Shown: piece after piece, positions 5,806 to 49,031 of the stretch
How positions within the stretch are numbered: position 1 is the first letter of the stretch
How the letters are laid out: each line of letters starts with the position of its first letter
Assembly (NCBI GenBank): GCA_043808785.1
Contig: JAZDEL010000009.1
Location: forward strand, 1,680-65,679
DNA length: 64,000 nucleotides
DNA from: Candidatus Iainarchaeum sp.
GTDB taxonomy: Archaea > Iainarchaeota > Iainarchaeia > Iainarchaeales > JAZDEL01
Direction of reading: 5' to 3'
Program-made: the position numbers and the translations under genes
The notes under the pieces: model-generated
Databases searched by the model: none
What the model was told of the DNA's origin: nothing
The model's input: only the letters and a program-made list of their open reading frames with translations

Positions 5806-5900
5806 ACTTTTAGGAGCGTGAGGCTTCGCCTTGCGCTCAGCCTCACTTCCCAAAAGTTGGCAAAACTTCTGGTATGTGGGCTGCCTTCGGCAGCCCGATA
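5806..5900 (+). ncRNA. Stable-RNA trailer module, copy 1 (directly 3' of rnpB)
   Basis: ACUUUUAGGAGCGUGAGGCU...AGCCUCACUUCCCAAAAG, then a GC hairpin GGGCUGCC-UUCG-GCAGCCC. Homologous to the elements after three tRNAs (see findings). Confidence 0.5.
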
Positions 5901-5979
5901 ATTCGTGCTGCGTTTCGCCACCTTTTTATATATCCTGCGATATTGGTTATTGTGCACGCTTTGTGTTGAGGTGGCTTGA

Positions 5980-6393
5980 ATGGCGGGTTCTGAAAGCATA
6001 GAAATCAGAGACGAATCTAACCACCCTAGTATTGCCGGCAATGAGGGCATACTCGTTGCATGGAAGGGCAGGGGGTATCTGGGCTGCATTAGGTGGAAAG
6101 AAAAGGCAAACTGGAAAGGGGACAAGACCTGGTGGCTTGTGCTGAACGGGGGAAAGGAAGTTTCAACGCAATTGCTAAGGGCGGTTCACGAGCATGCGAA
6201 AGAAAAGGGCATCAAATATATGGCATTTGAATTACCCTGCCCCGAACTGAGGGGGTTCCTCAGGGGGGCGGGAATGAAGGGCGGATCCAAAGAAAGGGTG
6301 CTTTACAAGAAATTCTCGGTTGCGTCTGTGCGTTTTGAGCCCCCCGTGCGGAAAAGTTTATTTAGCGCATTCAAATTCAAAAAGCCAAAGTAA
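5980..6393 (+). CDS. Small GNAT-like acetyltransferase-fold protein (putative)
   Basis: 137 aa. SD-like GAGGTGG before the ATG. The segment LLRAVHEHAKEKGIKYMAFELP resembles the GNAT core. Weak assignment. Confidence 0.4.
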   Translation: MAGSESIEIRDESNHPSIAGNEGILVAWKGRGYLGCIRWKEKANWKGDKTWWLVLNGGKEVSTQLLRAVHEHAKEKGIKYMAFELPCPELRGFLRGAGMKGGSKERVLYKKFSVASVRFEPPVRKSLFSAFKFKKPK

Positions 6394-6432
6394 GGTAACC
6401 ATTATATATCATTTATTGAAATATTAATAGTT

Positions 6433-9721: not shown

Positions 9722-10873
9722 ATGCCGCATTTTAACGTGCAGAAAGCAAGGCTGGTTCTCGGGGACGGTTCCTCTTTTTCGGGCATTTCGTTCGGTGCAA
9801 ATGCTTCTTCCGCGGGCGAGGTTGTATTCAACACGGGCATGTGCGGATATGAGGATTCGCTTTCAGACCCCTCATATTCGGGGCAGATACTGGTTTTCAC
9901 ATACCCCTTGATAGGTAACTACGGGGTAAGGGCGGAGGCACAGGGAAAGTTTGAAATGCGCCTTGCGGGAAAGGGGAACGGCGGCTTCCCGCCATACAAG
10001 CTCGACAGGAAATTCTTCATAAATAATTTCGAGTCCGAGCGCGTGCAGGCTGCGGGGGTTATAGTGGCGTCATATTCTGGCGCCTTTTCGCACCACTCCG
10101 CTGAAAAATCCCTCGGCGCGTGGCTTGAACAGCACGGCGTTCCCGCGATAACCGGCATAGACACGCGCGCGCTGACAAAAAGATTGCGCGAGTGCGGAAC
10201 GATGCCGGGAAAAATTGAAATAGAGGGCGTAAGTGATGTGCGGATATGTGACCCGAATAAAACCAACCTTGTCGCGGGGGTCGGCATAAAGGAGCCAGTG
10301 GTTTACGAGAGCGGGAAGCGCAGCCCCGCGCATGTTGTTGTCGCGGACTGCGGCGTTAAGAACAACATCCTGCGCATGCTGCTTGCCAGAAATCTCAAAG
10401 TTACGCGCGTGCCGTGGAATTACGATTTCAATTCAATCGAATGCGATGCAATCGTGCTCTCGAACGGTCCGGGCGACCCAAAGATGCTTAATGAAACAAT
10501 CTCTCACGTGCGCGCCGCGCTTGCAAAGGAAACCCCGATTTTCGGAATCTGCCTCGGCAACCAGCTGCTTGCGCTTGCAGCGGGCGCGGACACATATAAA
10601 CTCAAATACGGCCACAGGTCGCAGAACCAGCCCGTACTTTTGCGGGGCACAAAGAAATGCTTCATAACCTCCCAGAACCACGGTTACGCGGTTAATGAAA
10701 AAACCCTGCCCGCGGGCTGGGAATCATGGTTCACAAATCTGAATGACGGAACGAACGAGGGCATAAGGCACGCCAAAAAGCCCTTCATGTCGGTTCAGTT
10801 CCATCCCGAAGCAACTCCCGGGCCTGTGGATACGGCGTTCCTTTTCGGCGAATTTTTGGGGGCTTTGAAATGA
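9722..10873 (+). CDS. carA: Carbamoyl-phosphate synthase small (glutaminase) subunit
   Basis: 383 aa. Class-I glutamine amidotransferase catalytic Cys motif GICLGNQLL. Conserved FHPE near the C-terminus. Confidence 0.95.
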   Translation: MPHFNVQKARLVLGDGSSFSGISFGANASSAGEVVFNTGMCGYEDSLSDPSYSGQILVFTYPLIGNYGVRAEAQGKFEMRLAGKGNGGFPPYKLDRKFFINNFESERVQAAGVIVASYSGAFSHHSAEKSLGAWLEQHGVPAITGIDTRALTKRLRECGTMPGKIEIEGVSDVRICDPNKTNLVAGVGIKEPVVYESGKRSPAHVVVADCGVKNNILRMLLARNLKVTRVPWNYDFNSIECDAIVLSNGPGDPKMLNETISHVRAALAKETPIFGICLGNQLLALAAGADTYKLKYGHRSQNQPVLLRGTKKCFITSQNHGYAVNEKTLPAGWESWFTNLNDGTNEGIRHAKKPFMSVQFHPEATPGPVDTAFLFGEFLGALK

Positions 10874-12102
10874 GTTTCGCACAGGAAATGTACCCTCTCC
10901 CGAAACTATTTAAGCGCGGGCTGAACTTAATATTCATGGTGCCGCATTTGGATGCCGTAAAATCCGTTCATTTCTGGGATTTGCCCGAAACAACGAGGTT
11001 CGTTTTGGACCGAAATTTTTGTGCCGAACTTTTTGATAAGGCGGCCGGGGGAAGCCTCCGCTCGCTGGCTTCAAAATTGGGCGTTTCTTACCCGCGCGCC
11101 TGCCATCTGAGGCGGCCTTTGTATTCAATCCCTAAAGGCGTCCTGATGTGCCTGATAATTTTGAGTGCCATTGAAAAGGCGGATGTCGAAAATAAAATTA
11201 TTGAAATAAAAACCCGCTCAGGAGGCGGTTCCAAAGTTAAATTTCCCATTAACGGCAACAGGGCAATAGCCTCGCTTGTAGGGCACGTTTTCGGTGATGG
11301 GTGCATTTATTCGAAAAAACGGCAGTTCGAATACGGCAATACCAAACCCGAACTTCTGGAATCCGTAATGAAATTGGTCGGCGATGTTTTGTGTGCGGAG
11401 CCAATAAGGATTGCCGAAACAAGGCTTGTTTATTCGGCAATTGTGGGGGATATTTTGCTGTTGTTTGGCGCACCGAAAGCGCCTAAACTGAATTCAGATT
11501 CTCCCGTGCCGGAATGGATTATGGCCGGCCCGAATGAATTCAAGGCGGCATTTCTCGGGGCTTTGTTTGACGATGACGGTTCAGTTATGTATTCGGAAAA
11601 ATATGCCGCAAAAGGCATTAACCTGTACCAAACAAGGCACGAAAAAAATCTGGATTGCTTGATGCGCCTGATGAGCCAGGTAAAAACTATGCTGTCTGAT
11701 TTCGGCATACTTGCGGGCAAGCCTTCCGTAAGCAGGAGTTATTCCAAGCCGGATGGCGCCCATATTGTCGCATATCTGAACGTTACCGACATTGAAAGCA
11801 TGCGGAAATTTAATGAATCGATAGGGTTTGCCCACATTGAAAAAAAAGTGAAATTGGAAAAGATTCTCTCCAGAAAAATAATTTACAGCAAAACCCGCGA
11901 AGCCGTGCTGTCGAAAGAAATCCTCGGATTTTTGGCGGTGCGCGGGGCATCAACCGCAAAAGTTTCGGAGGCCCTGTCACTCGATAAATCCAAGGCTTTA
12001 AAGAAACTTCTCAGGCTTGAATCAAGAGGGCTTGTCAGGAGGGCGGGAAGGGCCGCCCCGAACAGGTCTTTTATCTGGCAAACGAGGGAGGTGACATGCT
12101 GA
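10870..12102 (+). CDS. Free-standing double-motif LAGLIDADG homing-endonuclease-like protein with a C-terminal wHTH-like tail
   Basis: Two LAGLIDADG motifs (LVGHVFGDGCIY and LGALFDDDGSV) about 100 aa apart. The ATG overlaps the carA stop (ATGA). The C-terminus ...LRLESRGLVRRAG is wHTH-like. Confidence 0.8.
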   Translation: MSFAQEMYPLPKLFKRGLNLIFMVPHLDAVKSVHFWDLPETTRFVLDRNFCAELFDKAAGGSLRSLASKLGVSYPRACHLRRPLYSIPKGVLMCLIILSAIEKADVENKIIEIKTRSGGGSKVKFPINGNRAIASLVGHVFGDGCIYSKKRQFEYGNTKPELLESVMKLVGDVLCAEPIRIAETRLVYSAIVGDILLLFGAPKAPKLNSDSPVPEWIMAGPNEFKAAFLGALFDDDGSVMYSEKYAAKGINLYQTRHEKNLDCLMRLMSQVKTMLSDFGILAGKPSVSRSYSKPDGAHIVAYLNVTDIESMRKFNESIGFAHIEKKVKLEKILSRKIIYSKTREAVLSKEILGFLAVRGASTAKVSEALSLDKSKALKKLLRLESRGLVRRAGRAAPNRSFIWQTREVTC

Positions 12103-12103
12103 T

Positions 12104-15100
12104 TTGAAAACAAAAAACCACCCAAAGCCGAAGAAGGTTCTCGTGCTGGGTTCGGGCGGGCTGCAGATAGGGCAGGCAGGCGAAAGCAACTTGTGGTTTC
12201 ATTGAAACTATAATTGCCGCCAATTCGACTACTCAGGCAGCCAGGCGATAAAGGCGCTGCGCGAGGAGGGCATAAGCACCGTGCTCATCAACCCCAACAT
12301 CGCCACAGTGCAGACAGGGAAGGGGTTCGCAGATAAGGTTTATTTCCTCCCCCTTACGCCCGAATTTGTCGAAAGGGTGATTGCTCGGGAGAAGCCTGGC
12401 GGCATACTACTCTCCTTCGGCGGGCAAACCGCATTGAACTGCGGCCTCGAACTCGAACGCAGGGGCGTTCTGCGCAGGCACGGGGTAAGGGTATTAGGCA
12501 CGCCTGTGAAGGCAATTGCACTCACGGAGGACAGGGAAAAATTCAACAGCGAACTCGGGAGGATAGGGGTTAAGGTGCCGAGCAGCAGCGCTGTAACCAC
12601 TGTGCCCTCGGCCCTTAGCGCGGCGGAAAAATTGGGCTACCCCGTGATTGTTCGCGCCGCATTCGCATTGGGGGGCAGGGGTTCGGGTTTTGCGAAAAAC
12701 AGGGAGGAATTAAGGGGCATCGCGGGGCGCGCGTTCACGCACTCGAAGCAGATTCTTGTGGAGGAATGCCTGAAGGGCTGGAAGGAAATCGAATACGAGG
12801 TTGTGAGGGATGTGCACGGCAACTGCATAACAGTTTGCAACATGGAGAACTTCGACCCTTTGGGAATACATACGGGGGAGAGCATTGTTGTTGCTCCCTC
12901 GCAGACGCTGAACAACAGCGAATACCACATGCTGCGTGAAATCTCGATACGCACGATAAGGCATTTCGGAATAATCGGGGAATGCAACATACAGTTCGCT
13001 TTGGACCCGAAAAGCGAGGAATACAGGGTTATCGAGGTTAACGCGCGCCTCTCGCGCTCGAGCGCGCTCGCTTCAAAAGCCACTGGTTATCCGCTCGCGT
13101 TCGTTGCCGCAAAACTCGCGCTCGGCTATTCCCTTGCCGAACTTGAAAACAAGGTCACAAGGACAACGAAGGCATGCTTCGAGCCCGCGCTGGATTATAT
13201 TGTCGTGAAAATTCCCCGCTGGGATTTGCAGAAGTTCAGGCGCGTTTCAAGGCGCATAGGCACCGAGATGAAGAGCATGGGGGAAGTGATGGCGATAGGC
13301 AGGACTTTCGAGGAGGCGATGCAAAAAGCCATAAGGATGCTTAACACAGGCATGAACGGCCTTGTGTGCAACAGCGTGCATTTCCTGAAACTGCGCAGGA
13401 GCATTGCCCACCCCACTGATAAGAGGATTTTCGCGGTTATAGAGTCTCTTGAGAAGGGTTACGGCATCGACAGGATACACGCGCTGAGCGGCATTGACAG
13501 ATGGTTCCTCCAGCGCCTTGAGAATGTGGTTGCGCTGAAGAAGGAAATGGTTAAGGGAAACTGGACAGCGCAGGCAATTCCCGCCGAAGTGCTGCTGCGC
13601 TGCAAACAGCAGGGGTTTTCGGATAAGCAGATTGCAATTTTGCTCCGTGGCGGCGGGGATGCGGGGGCGGGCGCAGACGGCGCGAAAATGCGCGGCTCGC
13701 CGGGCGGGGCGCAGGAGGCCGCGGTGCGCGCGAGAAGGCACGCCCTCGGCCTGCATCCTTTCGCAAGGCAGATAGACACGCTTGCAGCGGAATTCCCGGC
13801 GCGCACGAATTACCTTTACCTCACTTACAACGCAACCGAGGATGATGTAAAATTCCCGCGCGGGAAGAAGGCGCTTGTGCTCGGCAGCGGCGCATACAGC
13901 ATAGGCTCCAGCGTCGAGTTCGACTGGTGCTGTGTCGGCGCTGTTAACGCGCTCAAGCGCGCAGGGTTCGGCACGATAATGCTCAACTGCAACCCTGAAA
14001 CCGTCTCAACGGATTATGATGTGTGCGACAGGCTCTATTTCGAGGAAATCAGCCTTGAGGCAGTTCTTGAAATTTACGGAAAGGAAAAGCCGCGGGGGGT
14101 TGTTGTTTCAGCAGGCGGGCAGATACCTAACGGCCTTGTGCCGAAGCTCGCGCCCGCGGGAGTAAAAATTTTCGGAACGCCCGCGGAAAGCATAGACCGC
14201 GCGGAGGATAGGCATAAGTTTTCCGCCCTTCTCGATTCCCTTGGGATTGCCCAGCCGGAATGGCGCCAACTCACAACGGAAAAGCAGGCGCTTGAATTTG
14301 CAGCGCGCGTTAACTATCCGGTGCTTGTAAGGCCGAGTTACGTGCTCAGCGGTTCCGCAATGCGCGTTGCTTTCTCCCCCGCGGAACTCTCCTCATACCT
14401 GCGGGAAGCCACTTCGGTTTCTGCCGAGTACCCTGTTGTGATAAGCAAGTTCATCCTCGGCGCAAGGGAGGTTGAAATTGATGCTGTTGCCTCGAAGGGG
14501 GAAATGGCGGTTTGGGCGATAACCGAGCACGTGGAGAACGCGGGCGTTCACTCAGGGGATGCCACTATGGTTCTCCCTCCCCAGCGCACAAACCTCGAAA
14601 CCGTGCGCAGGATAAAGCATATTGCGAGGCGGCTTGCCTCCTCGCTCCGCATTTCAGGGCCTTTCAATATGCAGTTCCTTGCAAAGGACAACAATGTGCT
14701 CGTGATAGAGATGAACCTGCGCGCCTCGCGCTCGTTCCCGTTTGTTTCGAAGGTTTCCGGCACGGACTTTATCGATGCCGCGGTTTCGGCAATGCTCGGC
14801 GCGAAAGCGAAGCACGCAAATTCCTCCTCACTCGGGCCTGGCAAGGCGCCGCACACCAACTCATCCTCACTCGAGCTCGACCATGTGGGCGTGAAAGTTC
14901 CGCAGTTCTCCTTCTCAAGGCTGCACGGCGCAGACCCTAAACTCGGGGTTGAAATGGCTTCCACGGGAGAAGTTGCGTGCATAGGCCCTGATTTGGAGGA
15001 TGCGTTCCTCAAGGCAATGCTTTCAGCGGGCTACTCGATGCCCAAAAAGAACATGCTTGTCAGCATTTCAGGGGACAGGAACAGGGAAAAACTGCTTGAC

Positions 15101-15451
15101 GCGGTGAAGGCAGCGGCAGTTGCAATGCGCCTTAACATATTCGCGACGGAAAATACCGCGCGCTTCCTGCGCGCGAACGGCGTGAAATGCAGGCGCCTGT
15201 TCAAGGCTCACGAAAACAAGAAGCCGAATGTGCTCGGCTACCTGCACAGCGGCAGGCTTGATTTCGCGATATGCGTCCCCGACCCGCAGGTTGCCGCGGA
15301 AATGGGCGGCGCATACCTCCTCAGGCGCGCTGCCGTCGATTATTCAGTCCCCCTTATAACTGATGCCGAGGTCGCAAGGCAGTTCCTGAAGGCGATTTCC
15401 GCAAAGAAGCCCGAGGAGCTTGACATAAGGCCGTGGCAGGAGTATTTCTGA
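12104..15451 (+). CDS. carB: Carbamoyl-phosphate synthase large subunit, interrupted by a 39-nt insertion (12185-12223) carrying an in-frame TGA
   Basis: TTG 12104 follows GGGAGGTGA. The N-terminal exon KTKNHPKPKKVLVLGSGGLQIGQAGE ends at 12184. After the insertion the frame resumes at 12224 with FDYSGSQAIKALREEG... and continues as 12281..15451 in the ORF track. The two ATP-grasp halves and an MGS-like C-terminus are present. Confidence 0.85.
12185..12223 (+). other. 39-nt insertion in carB with an in-frame UGA; folds as helix / 3-nt bulge / 4-bp helix / hairpin, so a candidate BHB-type mRNA mini-intron
   Basis: Removing AGCAACUUGUGGUUUCAUUGAAACUAUAAUUGCCGCCAA restores the universal GQAxEFDYSG motif. 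Exonic GGCG pairs with CGCC at the insertion's 3' end. An AAA bulge spans the 5' junction. GCAA/UUGC forms a 4-bp helix, followed by a 10-bp stem with a 3-nt loop. Confidence 0.5.
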
Positions 15452-21558: not shown

Positions 21559-21574
21559 ATCCTAAATTAAAACA

Positions 21575-21605
21575 CGCAACTGCTTAAAGTTCTTTTCTTT
21601 TGGCG
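21575..21605 (-). repeat. 31-nt exact direct repeat (copy 1) covering the last 7 codons plus 9 nt of 3' UTR of methyltransferase paralog B
   Basis: CGCAACTGCTTAAAGTTCTTTTCTTTTGGCG is identical to 22257-22287. Confidence 0.85.
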
Positions 21606-22240: not shown

Positions 22241-22256
22241 ACCTTAACTGAGGCGC

Positions 22257-23105: not shown

Positions 23106-23157
23106 GGAAAATTAAGGGCAGGAACATAATAAAAATGTTCGTCAATTGACGAATTGA

Positions 23158-32577: not shown

Positions 32578-32580
32578 CTA

Positions 32581-33510: not shown

Positions 33511-33868
33511 CCGCGCGGGTTTGCGCAAAAGACTTATAATGGTTTTGCCCCTGGGTTTTTTCGGATGATATTCTGCCTACACGCGAAAGAAGCATTGCAA
33601 AAACAATAACCTTCAGGATAATCGCGACAATCGCAACCGTCGTGCTTGTGCTTGTTTTCACCGGCGACCTCGCCATTGCGGGAGCCATAGGCGCCCTGGA
33701 CTTTGTTTCAAAGCTCGCAATCTATTACCTCCACGAGCGCGCGTGGGCGAAAATAAAGTGGGGCAGGCGCGCTGCCCGAGATCACTGAATTTTTTCATTA
33801 CGGCCTGTTTTCCCTCGGCTTAAGCATTTCGGCTTCGCCGCTCTTCGCGCCCTTCGGGATGTTTGATA

Positions 33869-35095
33869 TCATTCTGCAACATCGCCGCCTTCAAGCATCC
33901 ATTTCCAGGCCGGCTTGACGGCAATACTCTTGCCCCTCTCTTTTATCGCATCTTCCTGGCCGTGTGTGACTATCACGCCCTTTTTTAAATTAAACTTTTC
34001 AAGGGCTTCCAAAAGCCCTGAAATTTCCCTTTCCTTGTTGTCATCGTTTATGGACCAGCATACCTGAACCGCATCGGTAATTTTTCCCTTTTTCCCGATA
34101 ACGAAGTCGCACTCGTGCTCTTTCCTAAAATAAAAAATTTCCCCGTGTTTTCTCCTAAGGTGCAGGAAGACCTGGTTTTCGAGCATCCTCCCGCTGTCTT
34201 TTGAGAACGATATTGAATTCGCCGCCGACAGCCCGTTGTCTATGGAATAGGCTTTTTTCGGGCTTGCCTGCTGTTCTTTGTAAGAGTAGCTGAATTTCGG
34301 GATAGTGAATATCAGGTAGGAATCCTCAAAGAATGAAATATAGTCAATAATGCTCTGTACCGAGGCCACTGAAAATGTTTTTTTCAGGGAATTGTATGAA
34401 AACTCCTTCCCGACGTTGCTGACCAGGTATATCGCCAGTTTTTTCAGCAAGTCGGAATTTCTTATGCCGAACCTGACAGCCACGTCCCGCATAATAACGT
34501 CCCTCAAAAGTTCCTGCAGCGCATATCCCTCTCTCTTTTCAAGGTATTCCGGGAAGCCGCCCGCAGTTAAGTATTTTGCAAAGGAATCCGCAGACGGCCT
34601 GTGCTTATGGTACCGCAGGAATTCCCTGTAGGAAAAGGGGAATAATTCGTGGCTTAAGTGCCTGCCGGTTAAAAGCGTTCCGAGTTCCCTGCTCAGGAGC
34701 GATGCATTGGAGCCAGTCAATACGACCTTTTCTTTTTTGTCTACGAGCCAGCGCACAAATTTTTCCCATTTCGGAACCGTTTGAATCTCGTCGAAAAAAT
34801 AAGTTCCCCCCGTCCCGTAACGCTCTTTGAAAATTTCGTCCGCTTTCGTGAAGTCGGACAGCTCGAAGCCGTTCAGCCTGATGTCCTCCAGATTAATGTA
34901 ATAAAAATTTCTCTCCCTCTTTAAGAGCTGTTTTAAAAGCGTGCTTTTTCCGCAGCGCCTTATCCCCGAAATGACTACCGCGAAGGAAGTGGTCGGCTTT
35001 ACAAAAGCAAGGTCTTCCCTGGGGACGGTTTTCCCGCCCTTGTCGTGTTCTTCCCTCTGTGTGGCAATCACGGCCTCCAATTTGTCTTTAAGCAT
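33869..35095 (-). CDS. AAA+ ATPase of the AAA_14/DUF4143 family
   Basis: Walker A GIRRCGKSTLL, Walker B YFFDEIQ, and a C-terminal DUF4143-like region. Confidence 0.7.
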   Translation of the reverse strand: MLKDKLEAVIATQREEHDKGGKTVPREDLAFVKPTTSFAVVISGIRRCGKSTLLKQLLKRERNFYYINLEDIRLNGFELSDFTKADEIFKERYGTGGTYFFDEIQTVPKWEKFVRWLVDKKEKVVLTGSNASLLSRELGTLLTGRHLSHELFPFSYREFLRYHKHRPSADSFAKYLTAGGFPEYLEKREGYALQELLRDVIMRDVAVRFGIRNSDLLKKLAIYLVSNVGKEFSYNSLKKTFSVASVQSIIDYISFFEDSYLIFTIPKFSYSYKEQQASPKKAYSIDNGLSAANSISFSKDSGRMLENQVFLHLRRKHGEIFYFRKEHECDFVIGKKGKITDAVQVCWSINDDNKEREISGLLEALEKFNLKKGVIVTHGQEDAIKERGKSIAVKPAWKWMLEGGDVAE

Positions 35096-35188
35096 GAGAT
35101 AATGGTGCCCAAAAACAAATATAAACCTTTCTATTAGAAATAGAAACTAACTTCTATTGCTAATAGACACTAAACTAAAAAAATCTTT

Positions 35189-35271: not shown

Positions 35272-35496
35272 GCCGGACAGATCCGGCGGCGATCTGTCCC
35301 GTCTTCGCTTATGCTCGACGGGACTAGCCTGCACGCCAAACTATCCTGGACAATTTTCTGTTGCAAAGCCCTTTTTATGCTTTCCGCATGCCGCGCATTC
35401 GGGAAAGCAGCAGCCTGCATGGTTTATATAGTTGGTTTTCCGTTTCTTTTTGTGGCGAAAAATAAAACCCTTGTTACTGGGCGCGGGCCTGTTGAT

Positions 35497-36652: not shown

Positions 36653-37072
36653 TTACTTGCATAAGGCTTTTTTTATCTTTTCCGAATAGCGCGCGCTTTC
36701 CCCTTCCGCATACTTCCCCTGCGGCCAGAGGTGCAGCCCGTCGTTCTCATACCTCGGGATAATATGGAAATGTATGTGCGGAACCACTTGTCCCGCACCC
36801 TTGCCATTGTTGACGTGCAGGTTGAAGCCATTTGCCCCCAAACCCTTAACCGCCGCGGCGCCGATTTTTTTAACCGCGGACATCATTGCGCAAATGTCCT
36901 TTTCAGGGGCGTCAAGCAGGTTCTCGGAATGGTTCCTTGCAACAACCAAAGTGTGCCCTTTTGTTGTGGGTGCAATGTCAAGGAACGCCACAACCTCGGC
37001 GTCACTGTAAACAAAATCCGCGGGAATTTTCCCGCTTATTATTTTGCAGAAGATGCAGTTTTCATTATTCAT
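36653..37072 (-). CDS. HIT-family (histidine triad) nucleotide hydrolase
   Basis: N-terminal CIFCKII and the triad HIHFHIIPR. Start ATG 37072 (or GTG 37081) follows the SD AGGTGA. Confidence 0.85.
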   Translation of the reverse strand: MNNENCIFCKIISGKIPADFVYSDAEVVAFLDIAPTTKGHTLVVARNHSENLLDAPEKDICAMMSAVKKIGAAAVKGLGANGFNLHVNNGKGAGQVVPHIHFHIIPRYENDGLHLWPQGKYAEGESARYSEKIKKALCK

Positions 37073-37186
37073 TGCATTCACCTGCCCGCAGCAGCGGGCT
37101 GTTCTTTTTGCAGGCTAACGTTTTTCGCAAACCTTTTGGAAGTGGGTTTGAGCCCAAGCGAAAACCCACGCTCCGAAAAGGTTTAA
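37070..37186 (-). ncRNA. Stable-RNA trailer module, copy 3 (directly 3' of tRNA-Ser-GGA, minus strand)
   Basis: rc: ACCUUUUCGGAGCGUGGGUUU..AAACCCACUUCCAAAAG, then GCCCGC-UGCU-GCGGGC, then AGGUGAAUGC, ending in the HIT start codon. Confidence 0.5.
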
Positions 37187-37269
37187 CGCGGGGAACGAGA
37201 TTCGAACTCGTGCATCCAGAGGATAACAGCTTTCCAGGCTGCCGCGTTAGACCGCTCCGCCATCCCCGC
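37187..37269 (-). tRNA. tRNA-Ser(GGA)
   Basis: rc: acceptor GCGGGGA/UCCCCGC, anticodon stem GCAGC/GCUGU with loop CUGGAAA, long variable arm, T arm ACGAG-UUCGAAU-CUCGU, discriminator G. Confidence 0.85.
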
Positions 37270-38061: not shown

Positions 38062-41000
38062 ATGAATGGCAAACACGGTTTTGGGCGTTCCACTGCAGGA
38101 AGTGCAGTTTTCGCACTTTTTTCCTTAGCACTGTTGCTGGCTTTTGCAGGGAATGTTTTTTCCGCGAATTATGTGCTGGATGTGAACCAGACAGGGGATA
38201 ATTTTGAGGTCGGGACTAAGGATTTCAATTTGTTTTTTGAGCAGTATTATGGCGGGGGGATTACAAAGGCAGTTGATTTGAACAGGGACGGCGCGGGTAA
38301 GGCCGACTTTGTCACCTCAGCCGTTGGATCGTGGTCAGTTACCTATTACTCATTGGACCCTTGGGTGGGAATAAGGGATGGCCTGGGCGGCAGGTTAACG
38401 GATGACGACAACGGCGCGCAATTGTGGAAGGCGGAGGGCCTGGACAGCAGGGTGCAGATGAAAGTAACCGGCGCGCTTATTGACTGGGACTTCTCCCCGC
38501 CGGGGCCAAAGTATGACCTAAACTTTGCAAAGACAAACACGATATATCCTGTTCCCGGTGGCATTAAGATAGCGGTGCACCTTGAGCTGACCGATACAAA
38601 TAGTGTGGCAACAACTTATGGCCGTTTTAGCAACTGTGCAGGTAATCCTTCCACATGGATTGCATACACGGATAATAATTTAAGCGACCCTGCAGGGTCT
38701 GAATGGTGGCGCGCGCGCCAGCGCACAACTTTGGGTGCCACTTCCGACGCAAATACCGTAGTCGTCATTGGTTATGCCAAACGTGCAGCGGACTCGAAGT
38801 TCTACAACAAAAAATTTGACCCTGATTCGGCGGGAAACTGGTCCGCCGGTGGCTGGTATTCTTGGACCGATAGTGCCTTAACCGAGCAATTCGATGCAGG
38901 CGAAACCGACTATATCAACTATGTGATTTACATCGCAAGCACAACTGAATTAGGGCGCGTTCAGGCAAGCCCGCAGGAAATCCCCGACGAAAACATGATA
39001 GACTACATCATGCTCGATTACCGCAACCCCGATAATTTGTTCATGAACAAAGGCACAACCCAAGGGTTCGATTTCAACACAGGCGCCTACTTAATCACAA
39101 CAGACAGCAACCGCGTTGATTTCAATATGTGCACGAACGGAGTGATGAACGACCAGAACACCTGGGACACGAACAGGTATTACCCCGCGTTCCAGATTAG
39201 CGACTACAACGCATCAACAGTGCCCGTCATGAAAGTAAACGGCGCAGCGAAAACAATGGGCGTTGATTATGTTTCCGATGTGAACACAACTGGGAAGTAT
39301 GCGGTTGTTGTTTGGTTAGGCGCGCTAACGGGAAATGACGAGAACGCGCAGTTCACAATTGCAACGGACTTAACAGCGCCGACTGTTTCGATTTCATCCC
39401 CCTCGGGCGGCTCAAGCACTGCCGCAAACTCGATGAACATCGTGTACTCAGGCTCCGACGCAAACAGCGCAATAAAGAAATATTACGTGCAGATGGATTC
39501 GCTTGGGTGGGTTGACAACGGCATGAACATAACCAGAAAGTTCTTTGGCCTTGCCCCTGGTTCGCATACCGCTTATGTAATTGCCGTCGACACCGCGGAC
39601 AACAACTCCGCCCAGGCGAGCGTAACCTTTACCCTTACTGCACCCGAGCAAATAAAAAAATACCTCGACGTGAACGCAACAGGCCAGAACTTCGAGGCAG
39701 GAACGCCGGACTTCAACATTTTCTTCCTGCAGAATATCGGGGGCAGCATAAATAAAATTACCGACCTGAACCTTGACAGCGCCACAAAAACCAACTTCGT
39801 AAACAGCACAAGCACTACTTATTTCGAATATTGGTCGATTACCCGTGTCAATGGGAGCAGCAGGACCAGCGATGCGGACACCTCCGCAAGGCTGCGGAAA
39901 AACGAGGATCTTGCAGCAAGGGCAAAAATAACCTCCGAAGGCGCAATTACCGACGGCAGTGCTGTCGGCGGATATGACCTGAACTTCACAAAAACTTATT
40001 CCATCTACCCGAACAAGAAAGTGTATGTGCACACCCTCCTGACAGACACGAACACGGGACCTACGGATTATAGTTCATTCAGGCATGTAACCCGCGCAAA
40101 ATCAGGGGGAACATTTTCGGGCATTGACAATAACGACTCCTCTCCTCTGACAGGTGACAACCACTGGCACGACGTGGGGCGCATAGACATGAACTCTGAT
40201 TTTGACGGAAACACAATTGTCGGCACAGGTTATGATGCCAACAGCGGCATTACGTTTTACACCCATAAATGGAACCCCGACTATACTTACACAACCGCCA
40301 CAGGCTCCAACCCCGGCCAGGGCGGTTATGCCTGCAACGGCCTCAGTCCCGACTTCATTTCCGGGGAAACAGATTTCATAAATTACCTCCTTGTAATTGC
40401 CAACACCAAGGAAACCGGCCACCCTGAGGACGGCAACAACCTCTTCGACGCGTATTTCCTCGATTACCGCACGCCTGACAGGCTGTTCATGATTACGGGA
40501 ACATCGCAGAACTTCGATTCGAATGTAGGTGCGTACAAATTAACCGCAAGCAGCAACACGGTGGATTTCAACATCTCCACGCGCGTCGGGGCAACCGATG
40601 TTAACCGTTACAAGCCAGCTTTCGAGATTGCAAACTACACTGCCTCCAACAAGCCATTGCTGAAACATAACGGCGTGCTCAAGAATGAGGGCACTGATTA
40701 CATCGCGGATGTGAACACTCTTGGCGATTACGCCGTTGTTGTATGGATGGGCGACATCCTCACAACGGATGTGAATGCGGAATTCACCATCTCCTCAAGC
40801 TTCAGCGGCCCTACGGCAACAATCTCCTCTCCCGCAGCGGGCTCGAGCACAGCGGCAAACTCGATGAACATAGTTTACTCCGCCTCGGACGCGAACGCGG
40901 GAATAAAGAAATATTACGTGCAGATGGACTCGCAGGGCTGGATTGACAACAACCTGAGCATCACACGCAAATTCTTCGGTTTGGCGCCTGGTTCGCACAC

Positions 41001-43314
41001 GGCTTATTTGATTGCGGTTAATGATGCGGATTTGAACTCAAGCACGGCGAGCGTGACGTTTACATTAACCGCACCAGCGGCAACAAAGCGCTATCTGGAT
41101 GTGAACGCGACAGGGCAGAATTTTGAGGTGGGGACTGCTGATTTTAACATTTTCTTCCAGCAGAGCCGCGGGGGCGGCCTAAATAGCATAATCGACCTGA
41201 ACAGGGACGGGGTGATTAAAACAAACCTTTCGCGCAATCCCCTATCTTTTATATTCGACGATTGGTTGGAGCAGGTGAATGGCAACCAGACCCGCACAAT
41301 GTATGACGACAACGGCGCGCAATTGTGGAAAGCCGAGGATTTGAACAGCAGGGTTAAAATAAATGCGAAAGGGGCATTGATGAACTGGTCAGGCTCCCCA
41401 GCAGGGCCAAAATGGGATTTGAACTTCTCAAAGACAAACACAATCTACCCCATTCCCGGCGGATTAAGGGTTGCGGTCCACCTTGAACTTACTGACACGA
41501 ATTCATCGGCAACGGCAACTACCACCTTCCACCATTCAATGTCAGGGGTTGCACAAACTTACTTTGTTTCATATACCGACAATAACGTAACCAGCACCGC
41601 AGGTTCTGAATGGTGGCACGCGCTACAGCGCATAGATTCCAATTCGGACTTTGATGCGAACACTGTGTTTGTTACGGGTTATGCCAAGCGCGCGGCAGAT
41701 TCCGGTTTTTACAACAAGAAATGGGACCCCTCTATCGGGGGCGCCTGGGACTATTTGATTAACTATAGCAGCACTTGGTATATGTACACCTCAGTCCAGT
41801 TCCAGCCGAATGAAACAGATTATGTCAATTACCTGATATATTTGGCAAGCACAAAGGAACTCGGCGCCGTGAATGGTTATCTTTCGCCAGATGAAAACTT
41901 CATCGATTACCGCATGCTCGATTACCGCAACCCCGATAATTTATTCATGAAAACAGGAACTTTCCAGGAATTCGATTTCAACACGGGCGCCTACCTTGTA
42001 ACTGCGGCAGGCAACAAGGTGGACTTCAACATCTGCACAAACGGAATAATGAACGACCAGAACCTCTGGGACACGAACAGATACTCGCCCGCCTTCGAAA
42101 TCGCGAACTACACCGCATCAACAAAACCCCTCCTCAAATACAACGAAGCAGTGAAAACAGAGGGCGTGGATTATGTTTCAGATGTGAACAATGCTGGGGA
42201 CTACGCAGTCGTAGTCTGGCTCGGCTCGCTCACAGGCAACGATGAAAACGCCCAGCTAACAATAGACGACAACTTCTTCACCCCGAACCTGGAAATAACC
42301 TCCCCGCCAAATCACTCGACCTCGGAAAACCAGTATGTCACAATCGCATACTCGATTGTGGACACAAACAACGCAATTGAGAGGTATTTCGTGAAGGCGG
42401 ACGATGGCGCCTGGGTGGATAATGCGCTGAACACCTCATACACATTCTCGGGCCTCTCAAACGGCATGCACACGCTTTACTCTGTTGCGCACGATATTTC
42501 GGATAACAACTCCAACACCGCATACGTCTGGGTCAATGTTTCTCCCCCCGGCACAGCTTCGGTGGTGTCCGGCACGCCTGCGGGGGGGCCTGAACAGCCT
42601 GCGGTGCCGGCGGATGCTGGGCAGGCACCAGCAGCGGAAGTGCCGAAAGTGAAGGAGCCCGCAAAAGAACCCTCCGCAGAAAAGAAGCCAGTGGCGAAGA
42701 AAGAAGCGGTTCAGGAGCCTCCCGCAGGAACATTGCTGCAGGCATCCATGTACGCCTTCCAGCCAAGTGCGGGGGAGATAAGCAAAACACTTTCCGCGCT
42801 GGGCAGGGGCGAGGATGAAATAAAGAACGCGGAAAAAGCCAACGCAGCGCTCGGCATAACGCGCATTGTAAGTGTTGTGAGCAACGGCAAAGGCGCGGAG
42901 GAATTTTCAACTGAGTTCACGGTAAGCGCAAAGAATAATTCATGGAGTACTGTGAGAAATGTGAAAGTAATTGAAAATGTGCCAAAGGCGGCAGCGGCAA
43001 CGGCTGAAAAGATACGCAGCAGCACAGGCTTCACCGTGCTTGAAAACGACCCGATAATTGAATTTGCTTTGGGTGATATCGCACCCGGGGAGGAAAAAGT
43101 GGCGGAATACTCCGTCGCAGGGCAGCTTGACAAGGAAGTCTTCTCCTCAATGGGCGCGCCGATTGCAACAGGCGCTGTTGAGGAAAACCTGCTGGATAAT
43201 ATCCTGCCCGCAATGGAGGCATACCCTGCGATGTTCGGCGCCTCAATAATCGTAATTATTGCGCTGATGGCTGTTTTATTTTATATCCTGAGGAAGCGCA
43301 GGGCCAAGGGTTAG
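38062..43314 (+). CDS. Giant secreted/surface protein (1750 aa) with three tandem ~480-aa repeats, a Pro/Ala/Lys linker and a C-terminal TM anchor
   Basis: Signal anchor (FALFSLALLLAFAG). Each repeat starts (Y)LDVNxTGxNFExGTxDFNxFF and ends with an Ig-like module SSPxxGSSTAANSMNIVYSxSDANxxIKKYYVQMDSxGW.DN.....RKFFGLAPGSHTAY. The C-terminus ...ASIIVIIALMAVLFYILRKRRAKG is TM plus a basic tail. Confidence 0.8.
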   Translation: MNGKHGFGRSTAGSAVFALFSLALLLAFAGNVFSANYVLDVNQTGDNFEVGTKDFNLFFEQYYGGGITKAVDLNRDGAGKADFVTSAVGSWSVTYYSLDPWVGIRDGLGGRLTDDDNGAQLWKAEGLDSRVQMKVTGALIDWDFSPPGPKYDLNFAKTNTIYPVPGGIKIAVHLELTDTNSVATTYGRFSNCAGNPSTWIAYTDNNLSDPAGSEWWRARQRTTLGATSDANTVVVIGYAKRAADSKFYNKKFDPDSAGNWSAGGWYSWTDSALTEQFDAGETDYINYVIYIASTTELGRVQASPQEIPDENMIDYIMLDYRNPDNLFMNKGTTQGFDFNTGAYLITTDSNRVDFNMCTNGVMNDQNTWDTNRYYPAFQISDYNASTVPVMKVNGAAKTMGVDYVSDVNTTGKYAVVVWLGALTGNDENAQFTIATDLTAPTVSISSPSGGSSTAANSMNIVYSGSDANSAIKKYYVQMDSLGWVDNGMNITRKFFGLAPGSHTAYVIAVDTADNNSAQASVTFTLTAPEQIKKYLDVNATGQNFEAGTPDFNIFFLQNIGGSINKITDLNLDSATKTNFVNSTSTTYFEYWSITRVNGSSRTSDADTSARLRKNEDLAARAKITSEGAITDGSAVGGYDLNFTKTYSIYPNKKVYVHTLLTDTNTGPTDYSSFRHVTRAKSGGTFSGIDNNDSSPLTGDNHWHDVGRIDMNSDFDGNTIVGTGYDANSGITFYTHKWNPDYTYTTATGSNPGQGGYACNGLSPDFISGETDFINYLLVIANTKETGHPEDGNNLFDAYFLDYRTPDRLFMITGTSQNFDSNVGAYKLTASSNTVDFNISTRVGATDVNRYKPAFEIANYTASNKPLLKHNGVLKNEGTDYIADVNTLGDYAVVVWMGDILTTDVNAEFTISSSFSGPTATISSPAAGSSTAANSMNIVYSASDANAGIKKYYVQMDSQGWIDNNLSITRKFFGLAPGSHTAYLIAVNDADLNSSTASVTFTLTAPAATKRYLDVNATGQNFEVGTADFNIFFQQSRGGGLNSIIDLNRDGVIKTNLSRNPLSFIFDDWLEQVNGNQTRTMYDDNGAQLWKAEDLNSRVKINAKGALMNWSGSPAGPKWDLNFSKTNTIYPIPGGLRVAVHLELTDTNSSATATTTFHHSMSGVAQTYFVSYTDNNVTSTAGSEWWHALQRIDSNSDFDANTVFVTGYAKRAADSGFYNKKWDPSIGGAWDYLINYSSTWYMYTSVQFQPNETDYVNYLIYLASTKELGAVNGYLSPDENFIDYRMLDYRNPDNLFMKTGTFQEFDFNTGAYLVTAAGNKVDFNICTNGIMNDQNLWDTNRYSPAFEIANYTASTKPLLKYNEAVKTEGVDYVSDVNNAGDYAVVVWLGSLTGNDENAQLTIDDNFFTPNLEITSPPNHSTSENQYVTIAYSIVDTNNAIERYFVKADDGAWVDNALNTSYTFSGLSNGMHTLYSVAHDISDNNSNTAYVWVNVSPPGTASVVSGTPAGGPEQPAVPADAGQAPAAEVPKVKEPAKEPSAEKKPVAKKEAVQEPPAGTLLQASMYAFQPSAGEISKTLSALGRGEDEIKNAEKANAALGITRIVSVVSNGKGAEEFSTEFTVSAKNNSWSTVRNVKVIENVPKAAAATAEKIRSSTGFTVLENDPIIEFALGDIAPGEEKVAEYSVAGQLDKEVFSSMGAPIATGAVEENLLDNILPAMEAYPAMFGASIIVIIALMAVLFYILRKRRAKG
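38164..42545 (+). repeat. Three tandem ~1.45-kb intragenic repeats (about 38164-39649, 39650-41080, 41081-42545)
   Basis: Collinear protein repeats. The C-terminal ~90 codons of units 1 and 2 are near-identical at the nucleotide level (around 39390-39650 vs 40800-41080). Confidence 0.75.
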
Positions 43315-47439: not shown

Positions 47440-47450
47440 TGTACTTTTTG

Positions 47451-48800
47451 ATGCAATCTTCCAATCCGGCGGGCGGGAAGCCGAAAAAGAAAGTGACCTT
47501 CGGGGTCGAGTTCGAACTGTTCACGCTTGACAAGTCCGGCAGGATGGCAAACACCGCAGGCACGCTCATAGATTCCGTGAGGAAAAAACACCCCCAAATC
47601 GACATTGTAAAGGAATGCGGAAAAAATATGGTTGAAATGCGGAGCGAGCCCGACGCGGACATCCCGAACGCGATGCTGGAAACTCTTGAAGATTTTGAAT
47701 GCCTTCTCCACACCGCGGAAACGGAAAATATTATCCTCTATCCGTACGGCACATACCCCGGGGAATTCAGCCCGCTGATGAACGAGGATAAATCCTATGC
47801 GATAAAGGAGAAAATTTTGGGGAAAAAAAGGTTTTCCATTGCGGGGAGGTGCGTGGGCATGCACTGCCATTATTCCCTGCCCCGCGGCGTATTTGATTTT
47901 TCAAACAAATTCCTCGACATTTTTGCCACGTCGAAAAACAAGGACGTCCTCGGCAACATGTACAACCTTTTTATCGCAATGGACCCCGCGCTGACAACCT
48001 TTACGCAATCCTCCCCCTTTTACCAGGGAAAATATATCGGCAAGGATTCAAGGGTAATAGTGTACAGGGGCGGAAAGCCGTTTAACTATCCCGAAGGGCT
48101 TTACGCCAACCACCCCGAATTCGGGGCGCTTCAGCCCTACAAGCTTGCGTACATCGATTTTAACGAACTGATACAAAAGCAATTTTACCTCTGGAACTAT
48201 ATAATCGACAGCGTGGATGTGAAGCTTCTGGCATTCGCAAAATACGGCTCGATTCTTGACACAGCATGGAATCCGGTGAGAATAAATGCGCACGGCACAA
48301 TGGAACAGCGGGGCATGGACATGAACAGGCCGGGGATTACCGCGGCAATTGCCGCCCTTGTAAAGGCGATATGCGTGGCTGTGCATACGAATTTTTTGGG
48401 TGTTGAACCGTCAAGGGACGCAATAAGCAGGCCTTTTAAATTCGAGAAAAACACGATTTTCATACCGCCGCATTCCCACGTAAGGAATAAGCTTCAGTAT
48501 AATGCCGCCTATAAAGGGCTGGAGGATAAGGACGTGCATAATTACTGCAAAAGCCTTATGGAGCTGGGCAAAAAATTCATGAATAAAAGCGACATCGTGC
48601 TCCTGAAGCCATTGGAGATAATGCTTGAGTCGAGAAAAACGGTTTCGGATGAAATCCTCGATATGGCGAAAAAGCAGGGAATTGACATTGCCGCAAAACT
48701 GTCGAATGAAGATGCGGCACAGCTTGCCCTGCTGCTTTCGAATGAACTGTTCAAGGATGTGTTGCTCACGAAGCAGAGCCTGAGCAAGGCCGAAGGCTGA
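47451..48800 (+). CDS. GCS2-family carboxylate-amine ligase (YbdK / glutamate-cysteine-ligase-like)
   Basis: KVTFGVEFELF N-terminal signature and ...GMHCHYSLP... Length and pattern fit PF04107-type amidoligases. Confidence 0.75.
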   Translation: MQSSNPAGGKPKKKVTFGVEFELFTLDKSGRMANTAGTLIDSVRKKHPQIDIVKECGKNMVEMRSEPDADIPNAMLETLEDFECLLHTAETENIILYPYGTYPGEFSPLMNEDKSYAIKEKILGKKRFSIAGRCVGMHCHYSLPRGVFDFSNKFLDIFATSKNKDVLGNMYNLFIAMDPALTTFTQSSPFYQGKYIGKDSRVIVYRGGKPFNYPEGLYANHPEFGALQPYKLAYIDFNELIQKQFYLWNYIIDSVDVKLLAFAKYGSILDTAWNPVRINAHGTMEQRGMDMNRPGITAAIAALVKAICVAVHTNFLGVEPSRDAISRPFKFEKNTIFIPPHSHVRNKLQYNAAYKGLEDKDVHNYCKSLMELGKKFMNKSDIVLLKPLEIMLESRKTVSDEILDMAKKQGIDIAAKLSNEDAAQLALLLSNELFKDVLLTKQSLSKAEG

Positions 48801-48914
48801 ACTTTTCGCCAGCCTTTTGCAGGCAGCGTGATTTCCGCGAAGCGGAAATCCTTCTTTTCGCAGGCTAAATTTTTCCCCGGGATTTCGGCCATTGGCCGAA
48901 ATTTTTCGGGCACG

Positions 48915-49031
48915 CTAATTGGGCTCCGCCCAATTGCGCCCGTTTTGGCGAAAGCCAAAACAGGGCAGCCCGAAATGCTTTTGGAAGTGAATTCAAAACC
49001 CTTGGTTTTGAAATACGCCCCGAAAAGGCTG
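48915..49031 (-). ncRNA. Stable-RNA trailer module, copy 4 (directly 3' of tRNA-Ser-TGA, minus strand)
   Basis: rc: GCAGCCUUUUCGGGGCGUAUUUCAAAACC..GGUUUUGAAUUCACUUCCAAAAG, then GGGCUGCC.. hairpins. Confidence 0.5.

Follow-up and report, generated by a model that had tools for sequence, protein, structure and literature searches.

Why should four different stable-RNA genes of one archaeon be followed by the same folded element, and what might that element do for them? The question is raised by a 64-kb stretch of DNA (hereafter "the window", meaning the whole stretch analyzed) from the metagenome-assembled genome (MAG) of an uncultivated DPANN archaeon, a member of Candidatus Diapherotrites. 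The alanyl-tRNA synthetase, HIT and ribulose-phosphate 3-epimerase (rpe) proteins of the window match those recorded for a Candidatus Diapherotrites MAG at 100% identity. Here, the gene for RNase P RNA and three tRNA genes each carry a copy of a structured module at the 3′ end. We compared the window with about 160 kb of DNA from relatives (Diapherotrites contigs, designated by L-numbers). The element family is real, conserved and undescribed, and it is best seen as a new variant of the terminator and trailer structures at archaeal stable-RNA genes. Regarding its role, our tentative choice, to which we give somewhat less than an even chance, is that it is a clade-specific, elaborated 3′-flank module that ends stable-RNA transcription units in Diapherotrites as a polar, two-sided terminator and insulator.

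At Rfam gathering thresholds, the window contains five stable RNAs, namely RNase P RNA and four tRNAs, and the module is directly 3′ of four of the five. The genes that precede a copy are:

5565-5798, plus strand: RNase P RNA, 5′ of copy 1 (RF00373 at 5565-5795, 107.7 bits)
32489-32577, plus strand: tRNA-Arg(UCU) with an intron of 14-15 nt, 5′ of copy 2 (Rfam tRNA, 60.3 bits)
37187-37269, minus strand: tRNA-Ser(GGA), 5′ of copy 3
49032-49114, minus strand: tRNA-Ser(UGA), 5′ of copy 4

The RNase P RNA was extended to 5798 by the CAGGG/CCCUG pairing of its P1 helix, as read from the sequence, and the anticodon of tRNA-Arg, which ARAGORN was unable to name, was read from the anticodon loop. The remaining gene, tRNA-Leu(GAG), lacks a 3′ copy and ends in T7, as had been noted originally, yet its 5′ leader has a related hairpin.

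The 13-nt box CTTTTMGGRGCGT matches the window without mismatch only at 5807(+), 32585(+), 37180(-) and 49027(-), and its partner box, CACTTCCMAAAAG, is present at the corresponding distance for all four sites. Each copy is directly 3′ of its stable RNA and on the same strand. We built a covariance model from copies 2-4 only (R1) and scored it at every position of the window on both strands. It recovered copy 1, which was not in the training set, with 45 bits (E = 4e-12); the training copies scored 75.6 (copy 2), 79 (copy 3) and 73.2 bits (copy 4). No fifth copy emerged from R1 over the whole window, in which the next match, antisense shadows of the copies aside, has 13 bits (E = 0.09). By a rough estimate, chance alone would place all four matches immediately after stable RNAs, and on the same strand as these, with a probability of about 1e-6. 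The original prediction of four homologous elements at these sites is therefore borne out by R1 and by the exact boxes, and the covariance-model search that it proposed, run across the window, gives only these four significant copies, all of them after stable RNAs. That prediction had the elements begin 3-5 nt after the mature 3′ end; they do follow the stable RNA directly, but the real start of the hairpin is 1-7 nt past that end.

The copies share one architecture. Their first hairpin (hairpin 1) consists of an outer helix, a 1-nt bulge, a 4-bp GGAG/UUCC helix, another 1-nt bulge and a variable inner stem. The outer helix, (N)CCUUUU/AAAAGG(N), is extended by 2-4 pairs that are copy-specific yet complementary (CAAC/GUUG, AAACC/GGUUU, CAG.CC/G.CCUG). 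A single C forms the first bulge, for which copy 1 has an A.C 1x1 loop instead; the GGAG/UUCC helix contains a G.U pair, and the second bulge is also C. Downstream are an A-rich spacer and a second, GC-rich hairpin (hairpin 2). Compared to shuffled controls, hairpin 1 has folding-energy z-scores of -3.6 to -6.0 in the four copies. We refer to this arrangement as the long form, and its parts in the window are:

5804-5859, plus strand: copy 1, hairpin 1, long form, A.C variant (fold z = -5.9), with U4 at 5808-5811
5860-5896, plus strand: copy 1, A-rich spacer (GGCAAAACUUCU...) and hairpin 2, GGGCUGCC-UUC-GGCAGCCC, at 5878-5896
32581-32679, plus strand: copy 2, hairpin 1, long form (z = -6.0), with a nested two-hairpin cassette of about 65 nt in its loop at about 32602-32665
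32680-32730, plus strand: copy 2, A-rich spacer, hairpin 2 (32699-32717), then GGUAAUGCAUAUG, from the fold and the sequence
37128-37185, minus strand: copy 3, hairpin 1, long form, UAAACCUUUU-C-GGAG-C-GUGGGUUU...AAACCCAC-UUCC-AAAAGGUUUG
37070-37127, minus strand: copy 3, tail, with purine-rich GCGAAAAACGUUAGCCUGCAAAAAGAACA, hairpin 2 at 37084-37099, the Shine-Dalgarno sequence GGUGA at 37078-37082 and the HIT ATG at 37070-37072
48977-49029, minus strand: copy 4, hairpin 1, long form with a divergent inner stem, from the fold and R1
48801-48976, minus strand: copy 4, extension, with the cassette at 48907-48971, a T...A palindrome at 48881-48903 and a copy-3-type tail at 48850-48877

Several details of the earlier description change in this anatomy. 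A conserved flank had been attributed to every copy; the boxes are indeed shared, but copy 1 reads CUUUUAGGAG...UUCCCAAAAG, with the A.C loop in place of the bulged C, so that its hairpin 1 is laid out as CAACUUUU-A-GGAG-C-GUGAGGCU...AGCCUCAC-UUCC-C-AAAAGUUG. The 3′ halves of copies 1 and 2 (spacer plus hairpin 2) are 82-85% identical. The UUCG loop once assigned to the GC-rich hairpin of these two copies is, on a recount, a UUC triloop on an 8-bp stem, and a cUUCGg tetraloop was accordingly rejected as evidence for the sense strand. Copies 2 and 3 end in the Shine-Dalgarno sequence and start codon of the next gene. In copy 2, GGUAAUGCAUAUG probably supplies both the Shine-Dalgarno sequence and the start of a CTP_transf_1-like gene, for which two ATGs, at 32722 and 32728, are in frame. 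The string GGU(G)AAUGC had been given as the end of the module, overlapping a start codon; the module does run into the start codon, but the string itself is the Shine-Dalgarno sequence plus the region before the start, and HIT begins at ATG 37072, as confirmed by NCBI protein P0121 (100% identity over all 139 aa). Copy 4, formerly bounded at 48915-49031, really reaches to about 48801; it includes the extra two-hairpin cassette, and its copy-3-type tail occupies 48877-48830. This extension also has an equivalent of hairpin 2 (48830-48851) and GCGAAAAG repeats, and it reaches the stop codon of a convergent open reading frame (ORF), 47448-48800(+). Its eight A4+ runs on this strand are eight U4 tracts for a converging transcript.

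Is the structure itself conserved? We examined covariation in six long-form copies, the four in the window and two from a relative (L004); this is a small sample. Of the cells, 90.6% are paired, 6 of the 20 pairs are changed on both sides, and one pair occurs as four pair types. None of 500 column shuffles matched the covariation score or the percentage paired, and 2 of 500 matched the number of both-side changes; structures slid by 1-3 columns had far lower scores. One "double change" (columns 5-99) is a 1-nt shift of the copy-1-type sequences, whereas those in the inner stem are clear. The compensatory changes originally reported in the stem are thus supported. The strand is a subtler matter. 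A thermodynamic test for the functional strand gave no preference for the sense strand, the antisense strand being equally or more stable in six of six long forms. All six copies have the same G.U pair within the 4-bp helix, a constancy that favors the sense strand in copies 2-4; in copy-1-type sequences, the sense A.C loop is a G.U pair on the opposite strand.

How far does the module extend among relatives? The order rpe-tRNA-Ser(GGA)-HIT is conserved across them, and an orthologous comparison is therefore possible. L004 (GCA_043820655.1; the sequence is identical in three other assemblies) has HIT and rpe products 62% and 65% identical to those of the window. Its tRNA-Ser(GGA) is followed by a long form in which the inner stem is shorter and different (GCGAGC/GCUCGC) through compensatory changes. 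The tail, GCAAAAAGAACAGC, is kept, with 63 of 76 positions of the copy 3 tail identical, and hairpin 2 retains its form although its sequence is new. L008 (rpe 79% identical) also has the long form at this site, and the contig breaks within the element. In L009 (rpe 77% identical), the tRNA starts 9 nt past the rpe stop codon and is followed by an outer helix only, AAACCUUUUCUUGGGAAGAAAAGGUUU, then GCGAAAAGAAC and then the HIT gene. Because L009 retains only the outer helix at the orthologous site, the GGAGCG core is dispensable. This simpler version, which we term the short form, is the CCUUUUC...GAAAAGG outer helix with or without a purine-rich tail. A second short form (TAGCCTTTTCTTAAAAAGAAAAGGTTAGCGAAA) at 2190-2244 of L009, at the contig end, interrupts the HIT frame after ENCI; it is either a real insertion into the gene or an assembly artefact at a repeat.

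At other loci the module varies in form and in presence. The tRNA-Leu(GAG) gene of L004 has a long form at its 3′ end, where that of the window has none, and this copy is identical at 59 of 65 positions to copy 1 of the window, which follows RNase P RNA; the differences include a compensatory G-C to A-U change. In L004, tRNA-Arg has only a short form, a simple palindrome, and tRNA-Ser(UGA) has no module at its 3′ end. A tyrosine-recombinase (Phage_integrase) gene, at 669-1766 (-) of L004, is located beside this tRNA-Ser(UGA). The near-identical contig L005 (1-1415) has a CarboxypepD_reg gene where L004 has Phage_integrase, a strain-level insertion. In L003, whose alanyl-tRNA synthetase (AlaRS) is 69% identical, only T-runs come after RNase P RNA. 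In more distant Diapherotrites (AlaRS 52-53% identical), RNase P RNA is still 5′ of AlaRS, and no long form was found in their contigs. Short forms follow RNase P RNA, tRNA-Ala and 23S rRNA in L016, each with a GCCAAAAAGAAAGAAC-like tail, and 23S rRNA in L011; tRNAs of L017 have only T7-T8 runs. HIT homologs were uninformative as a route to more members of the clade, because all are about 55-61% identical to both reference proteins.

In the window, tRNA-Arg and tRNA-Leu are convergent, as they are in L004, with a spacing of 2.6 kb as opposed to about 140 nt in L004. The interval, 32578-35188, holds the CTP_transf_1-like gene, a small membrane-protein-like ORF and a lower-GC gene for an AAA_14/DUF4143 ATPase. 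An insertion here may explain the loss of the tRNA-Leu trailer module; no remnant of such a module was found past the inserted AAA_14/DUF4143 gene.

Does the element belong to a described family? Rfam 15, applied to the window at gathering thresholds, returned tRNA and RNase P only. In E-value mode over the elements, the best scores were 29.8 bits for mir-1502 (threshold 66) and 16 bits for mir-553 (threshold 82), a generic hairpin resemblance. The statement that the module matches no described RNA family thus survives these searches, as does the absence of C/D and H/ACA features: the RUGAUGA, CUGA and ACA boxes of such small RNAs are missing from the four copies, and no Rfam snoRNA match comes near threshold. 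An exact gapped pattern, CTTTTMGGRGCGT-N12-42-CACTTCCMAAA, had one match each in genome and metagenome contigs, in the same Verrucomicrobiales coding sequence, which we rejected for its lack of an inner stem and of a neighboring tRNA end. This pattern is too strict for the L004 variants (GCGC, ATGAG); a looser one had no match in viral contigs.

Other known structures were considered and set aside. A bulge-helix-bulge, the substrate of EndA, has two 3-nt bulges on opposite strands around a 4-bp helix, whereas the module has two 1-nt bulges on the same 5′ strand or, in copy-1-type copies, an A.C 1x1 loop. The module does resemble the bulge-helix-bulge stems of archaeal rRNA and tRNA in that a helix flanks a stable RNA and a 4-bp helix is bounded by bulges; unlike them, its helix is formed by the trailer alone and not by pairing of leader and trailer. 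A by-eye check of the four copies for leader-trailer pairing into a processing stem gave only a 7-bp match in copy 4. A K-turn or K-loop (an L7Ae site) was rejected because the sense strand lacks GA/GA, and because the tandem G.A found on the antisense strand and in the leader hairpins is not accompanied by a 3-nt bulge. Mimicry of a tRNA minihelix does not fit either, the stem above the first bulge varying from 10 to about 15 bp. As for an integron attC site, AAC...GTT ends occur in three of six copies and do not fit RRRY; the neighbors are housekeeping genes (AlaRS, carAB, HIT, rpe), and there is no integrase in the window.

The nearest precedent is from Methanopyrus kandleri, in which CGTTA(N)9TAACG is found about 10 bp downstream of approximately half of the tRNA genes; it was not found in other genomes, and its authors suggested a 3′-maturation signal (PMC5217627). 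Like the module, it is lineage-specific and follows many of the tRNA genes, though not every one, at a constant short spacing. It spans about 19 bp as compared to 55-230 nt and differs in sequence, and no U-tract, bulged core, second hairpin or association with RNase P or rRNA genes was reported for it. It is thus the same kind of feature with no relation in sequence.

The position of the U-tract bears most directly on function. The common plan is a stable RNA, a U4 tract 3-12 nt past the mature 3′ end, the complement of that tract (forming the hairpin) and A-rich sequence. Runs of at least four T that start no more than 12 nt from the mature 3′ end are present at 19 of 20 tRNA and RNase P genes from eight genomes or lineages, but at only 5 of 43 crude protein ORF ends in the window (p = 1.2e-10). 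The T-run is an ascending hairpin arm, paired with a downstream A-run, at 12 of the 20 stable RNAs versus 5 of the 43 ORF ends (p = 1.3e-4). The distance from the stable RNA to the start of U4 is 6-10 nt for each of the four copies in the window; for the tRNA-associated copies of L004, L008 and L009, U4 starts at +3 to +8. Further, A4+ runs outnumber T4+ runs on the sense strand in all 12 long and short modules (45 versus 19; sign test, p = 0.0005), the T-run is always first, and the A-rich sequence gives 2-8 U4 tracts on the opposite strand. Two palindromes of the opposite polarity, with the A-run first and the T-run last, are located at 29717-29754, between two protein-coding ORFs, and at 4945-5038; they are in the style of bacterial terminators on both strands and contrast with the T-first palindromes after stable RNAs.

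The module can be compared with both archaeal and bacterial terminators. Directly 3′ of the gene, each copy in the window has the stretch of four or more U that typifies the U-tract terminators of aCPSF1/FttA (PMC8716108, PMC10450193), for which graded, leaky read-through is possible; those described need no hairpin, whereas in the module the U-tract itself forms the 5′ side of a conserved hairpin, whose core is sequence-specific. With bacterial intrinsic or bidirectional terminators, the module shares GC-containing palindromes, runs of A and T and placement at gene ends, in some cases between convergent genes. Its polarity, however, is reversed: the U-tract precedes and pairs into hairpin 1 as the ascending arm, A-rich sequence follows, and hairpin 2 gives way to a Shine-Dalgarno sequence and start codon, or to mixed sequence, with no U-tract after it. 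Termination in Methanococcus maripaludis is more effective where there are more U4 tracts, with a median efficacy of 43% for one and 52-56% for two or more, and efficient binding of aCPSF1 requires two tracts, a single one being leaky (PMC8716108). Internal leaky terminators are also known to set expression ratios inside operons (PMC10450193).

Starting from the observed anatomy, position, orientation, covariation, phyletic pattern and U-tract polarity, and drawing on this published work on other archaea, we infer a model of termination, insulation, co-transcription and protein binding. The U4 tract would be a termination signal for archaeal RNA polymerase and aCPSF1/FttA. A single proximal tract on the sense strand would end most stable-RNA transcripts but, being leaky, would allow some read-through; co-transcription of tRNA-Arg and tRNA-Ser(GGA) with the gene at the end of the module would therefore be possible. 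Such read-through would be needed where the next gene lacks its own promoter (copies 2 and 3, L004 and L009). No TATA-like box is found from tRNA-Arg to the start codon in copy 2, nor between tRNA and start codon in copy 3 or in L004; the gene after copy 1, on the other hand, has its own such box at about 5921-5935. In the other direction, the 2-8 antisense U4 tracts would stop transcription that approaches the stable-RNA gene, most clearly at copy 4 and at tRNA-Leu/tRNA-Arg of L004. Both of these lie between convergent genes, and the ORF converging on copy 4 meets three U4 tracts no more than 60 nt past its stop codon. Because the U4 tract is followed by its own complement, read-through RNA would fold into hairpin 1, which could keep the trailer from pairing with the tRNA and, after cleavage by tRNase Z, could serve as a structured 5′ end of the downstream mRNA. 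Within the clade to which the window belongs, the hairpin would have gained the conserved GGAG/UUCC helix and two single-base bulges, possibly as a protein-binding site, and the module would have been copied or recombined between stable-RNA loci. Among the three roles first proposed (a trailer-processing or termination module, a trailer-derived small RNA and an insulator), termination and insulation fit best, given that every module opens with U4 at the site where the other stable RNAs of these genomes have their T-run (19 of 20 stable RNAs as against 5 of 43 ORF ends).

The 5′ side of certain tRNA genes has a hairpin module of its own, represented in the window by one locus:

35272-35345, minus strand: 5′ leader of tRNA-Leu(GAG), with a tandem-G.A hairpin at 35293-35327 (fold z = -4.3; 39.7 bits with R3, a model from leader hairpins only) and CAGAUC-N7-GAUCUG

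The same two-hairpin leader module occurs in L004 at 1901-1934, 2796-2829 and 3494-3529 (+), at three tRNAs, and in L010 at 1442-1474 (+), after rpe. The first leader hairpin is composed of a stem, tandem G.A-A.G, a 2-bp GC and a loop of 4-5 nt (GAGC-N4-GCGA), with covarying stems; the second, CAGAUC-N7-GAUCUG, likewise covaries (CACAUC/GAUGUG). For copies 1 and 3 and the tRNA-Leu copy of L004, hairpin 1 read on the antisense strand has the apex stem-GA-GC-loop-GC-GA-stem, as in the first leader hairpin. The best non-training matches of R3 are all inside tRNA leaders or trailer modules, mostly antisense. Those to copy 1 (17.9 bits, E = 0.015) and copy 3 (14.3 bits, E = 0.18), both antisense, have modest E-values, but the placement of the matches is not random.

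Several observations weigh against a terminator and insulator. A bare T-run follows tRNA-Leu in the window, the RNase P genes of L003, L011 and L014 and the tRNAs of L017; because a plain T-run suffices at many loci, the hairpin is not needed for termination as such. The conserved core and its bulges have no role in the model beyond a guessed protein site, and the tandem G.A motif, which is on the antisense strand and common to the tRNA leader hairpins, is left unexplained by it. In all six long forms, the antisense strand is more stable by 0.4-6.2 kcal/mol. A strong antisense terminator also has no obvious client at most window copies, because the gene after copy 1 has its own promoter and nothing converges closely on copies 2 and 3. 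Finally, non-orthologous copies are 91% identical while neighboring proteins are 62-65% identical, a fact that fits mobility as well as constraint.

That last point introduces the most substantial rival, which is not mutually exclusive with the terminator and insulator reading. The REP/BIME and Correia elements are small imperfect palindromes with conserved ends that form mosaics, reside at gene ends, are co-transcribed and are copied between loci; they have reported effects on termination and mRNA stability, are dispersed in both orientations and are linked to RAYT or another transposase. The module could likewise be a selfish, REP/BIME-like or miniature inverted-repeat transposable element (MITE)-like palindrome, spread by transposition or gene conversion and tolerated at, or targeted to, stable-RNA flanks, with any terminator effect incidental. 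We regard this as possible, though on balance unlikely as the whole explanation. The ends of the module are conserved, imperfect inverted repeats (CCTTTTCGGAGCGTG pairs with CACTTCCAAAAGG) around a variable interior, and a cassette of about 65 nt is found both in the loop of copy 2 (32602-32665, plus strand) and downstream of hairpin 1 in copy 4 (48907-48971, minus strand), identical at 48 of 62 positions. It comprises two palindromes, YUUUUGSC...GSCAAAAY and GCGCAWUYGG...CCRAWUAGCG, and suggests that sub-modules have been inserted or shuffled. Copies 1 and 2 are identical at 58 of 68 positions, and the 59 of 65 shared by copy 1 and the tRNA-Leu copy of L004 lie at non-orthologous loci. Presence varies from locus to locus between relatives (Leu, Ser(UGA), Arg, RNase P), subtypes look homogenized within genomes (the C bulge in three of four window copies, the A.C loop in both of the L004 copies), and related hairpins stand in the opposite orientation in tRNA leaders. 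The Logan contig of L008 breaks in the element, and the L009 contig ends in a short form abutting a truncated HIT ORF. The copies thus move or recombine between loci, as the near-identity of non-orthologous copies, the gain and loss by locus, the sharing of subtypes within genomes, the shared cassette and the contig breaks show. The history of the module therefore includes copying or recombination between loci, and the original claim of selection on RNA structure rather than recent duplication was too strong. Yet other facts speak against a plain transposable element. There is no target-site duplication around any of the six complete copies, and a Pfam scan of 41 window ORFs revealed no transposase, integrase, recombinase or IS200/IS605 (RAYT-type) transposase. 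The module, unlike REP/BIME, is seen only at stable-RNA flanks, with no significant copy elsewhere in the 64 kb of the window or the roughly 160 kb from relatives; its orientation relative to the stable RNA is the same in seven of seven long forms, and the Ser(GGA)/HIT copy has been kept, with compensatory changes, where rpe is 65-79% identical.

The remaining explanations strike us as less probable. The module might process or stabilize tRNA-mRNA co-transcripts by guiding or limiting tRNase Z and capping the mRNA 5′ end against 5′-3′ exonucleases, the core binding a processing protein. This improbable idea draws on copies 2 and 3 and L004-Ser, which lead directly to a Shine-Dalgarno sequence and start codon and lack any promoter-like box in between, on the start of the hairpin 1-3 nt past the tRNA discriminator base, on the invariant G.U pair and on hairpin 2, which keeps its structure but not its sequence upstream of the Shine-Dalgarno sequence. 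There is, however, no mRNA to protect after copy 1 (own promoter), copy 4 or L004-Leu (both convergent); L009 has lost the core though the HIT gene is still downstream; and the A.C loop of copy-1-type copies cancels the wobble evidence for the sense strand. Conserved bulged bases in an otherwise paired hairpin with a variable center could instead mark a folded single-stranded or double-stranded DNA site for a structure-specific protein (a recombinase, an HUH enzyme or a chromatin or replication factor), with inward-facing hairpins at both flanks of stable RNAs. The tandem-G.A hairpin, sense upstream and antisense downstream of tRNA genes, the antisense fold at least as stable as the sense one and the AAC...GTT outer ends of three copies are consistent with such a site, but copies 2 and 4 lack those ends, the window has no recombinase, and the neighbors are housekeeping genes and not cassettes; we judge it quite unlikely. 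Less probable still, indeed very unlikely, is a trailer-derived small RNA that is freed by tRNase Z and acts in trans: a stable hairpin with conserved blocks directly follows the tRNAs, but those blocks are mostly paired with no evident free seed, L009 has dropped the core, and many loci of relatives have no module. A bolder notion, which we consider a long shot comparable to the co-transcript idea, would join mobility to function. The module would belong to a class of palindromic elements, not described before, that are structure-specific and home to the two flanks of stable-RNA genes, being recognized by a protein and propagated as folded nucleic acid; with its inward tandem-G.A hairpins (sense in the 5′ leader, antisense in the 3′ trailer), it would be an archaeal counterpart of REP/RAYT or attC that doubles as a terminator and insulator.

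Other features of the window and of the relatives deserve mention. The box AAACCCTTATAAACC occurs twice 5′ of RNase P RNA, at 5436-5452 and 5527-5543 (+), about 90 nt apart; the proximal one is 22 nt 5′ of the Rfam-defined start of the RNA (5565), approximately the position expected of a B recognition element and TATA box. Between carA (9722-10873) and carB (12281-15451) is an ORF of 410 aa, 10870-12102 (+), with a LAGLIDADG_3 domain; its product may be a homing endonuclease, or the ORF may represent the N-terminal part of carB with an intein. An intergenic repeat of about 52 nt (...TTAAAGTTCTTTTCTTTTGGCG..., 62-83% identical) occurs three times, at 21561-21612, 22242-22293 and 23135-23186, where three successive ORFs of the minus strand end. 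One of these ORFs is a PIN-domain gene, and the repeat may be a shared promoter or regulatory region. At 38062-43314 (+), a surface-protein-like ORF of 1750 aa (Big_7 domain) has large internal DNA repeats of 65-300 nt, 65-78% identical and spaced at about 1.43-1.49 kb and 2.9 kb. In L011, tRNA-Arg(UCU) at 20193-20304 (-) is 36 nt 5′ of the arginyl-tRNA synthetase (ArgRS) gene with only a Shine-Dalgarno sequence between them, and it appears that the tRNA shares a transcript with its cognate synthetase. A comparable arrangement, an intron-containing tRNA followed by ArgRS, is seen in L016.

The synthesis and termination of stable RNAs in DPANN archaea are little known, and the organisms are hard to study; the module offers a concrete, testable cis-element. 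It shows where tRNA and RNase P RNA genes end on the 3′ side and, in its short form, does so for rRNA genes; it also appears to part stable RNAs from mRNAs on a shared transcript. A covariance model of it would aid annotation by flagging the ends of stable-RNA genes, and it explains assembly breaks in these MAGs. If the mobile or protein-recognized reading were true, the module would represent a new kind of archaeal repeat system. Moreover, the series from a T-run only, through a short palindrome, to a long form with a bulged core could show how a U-tract terminator becomes structured and, possibly, protein-bound.

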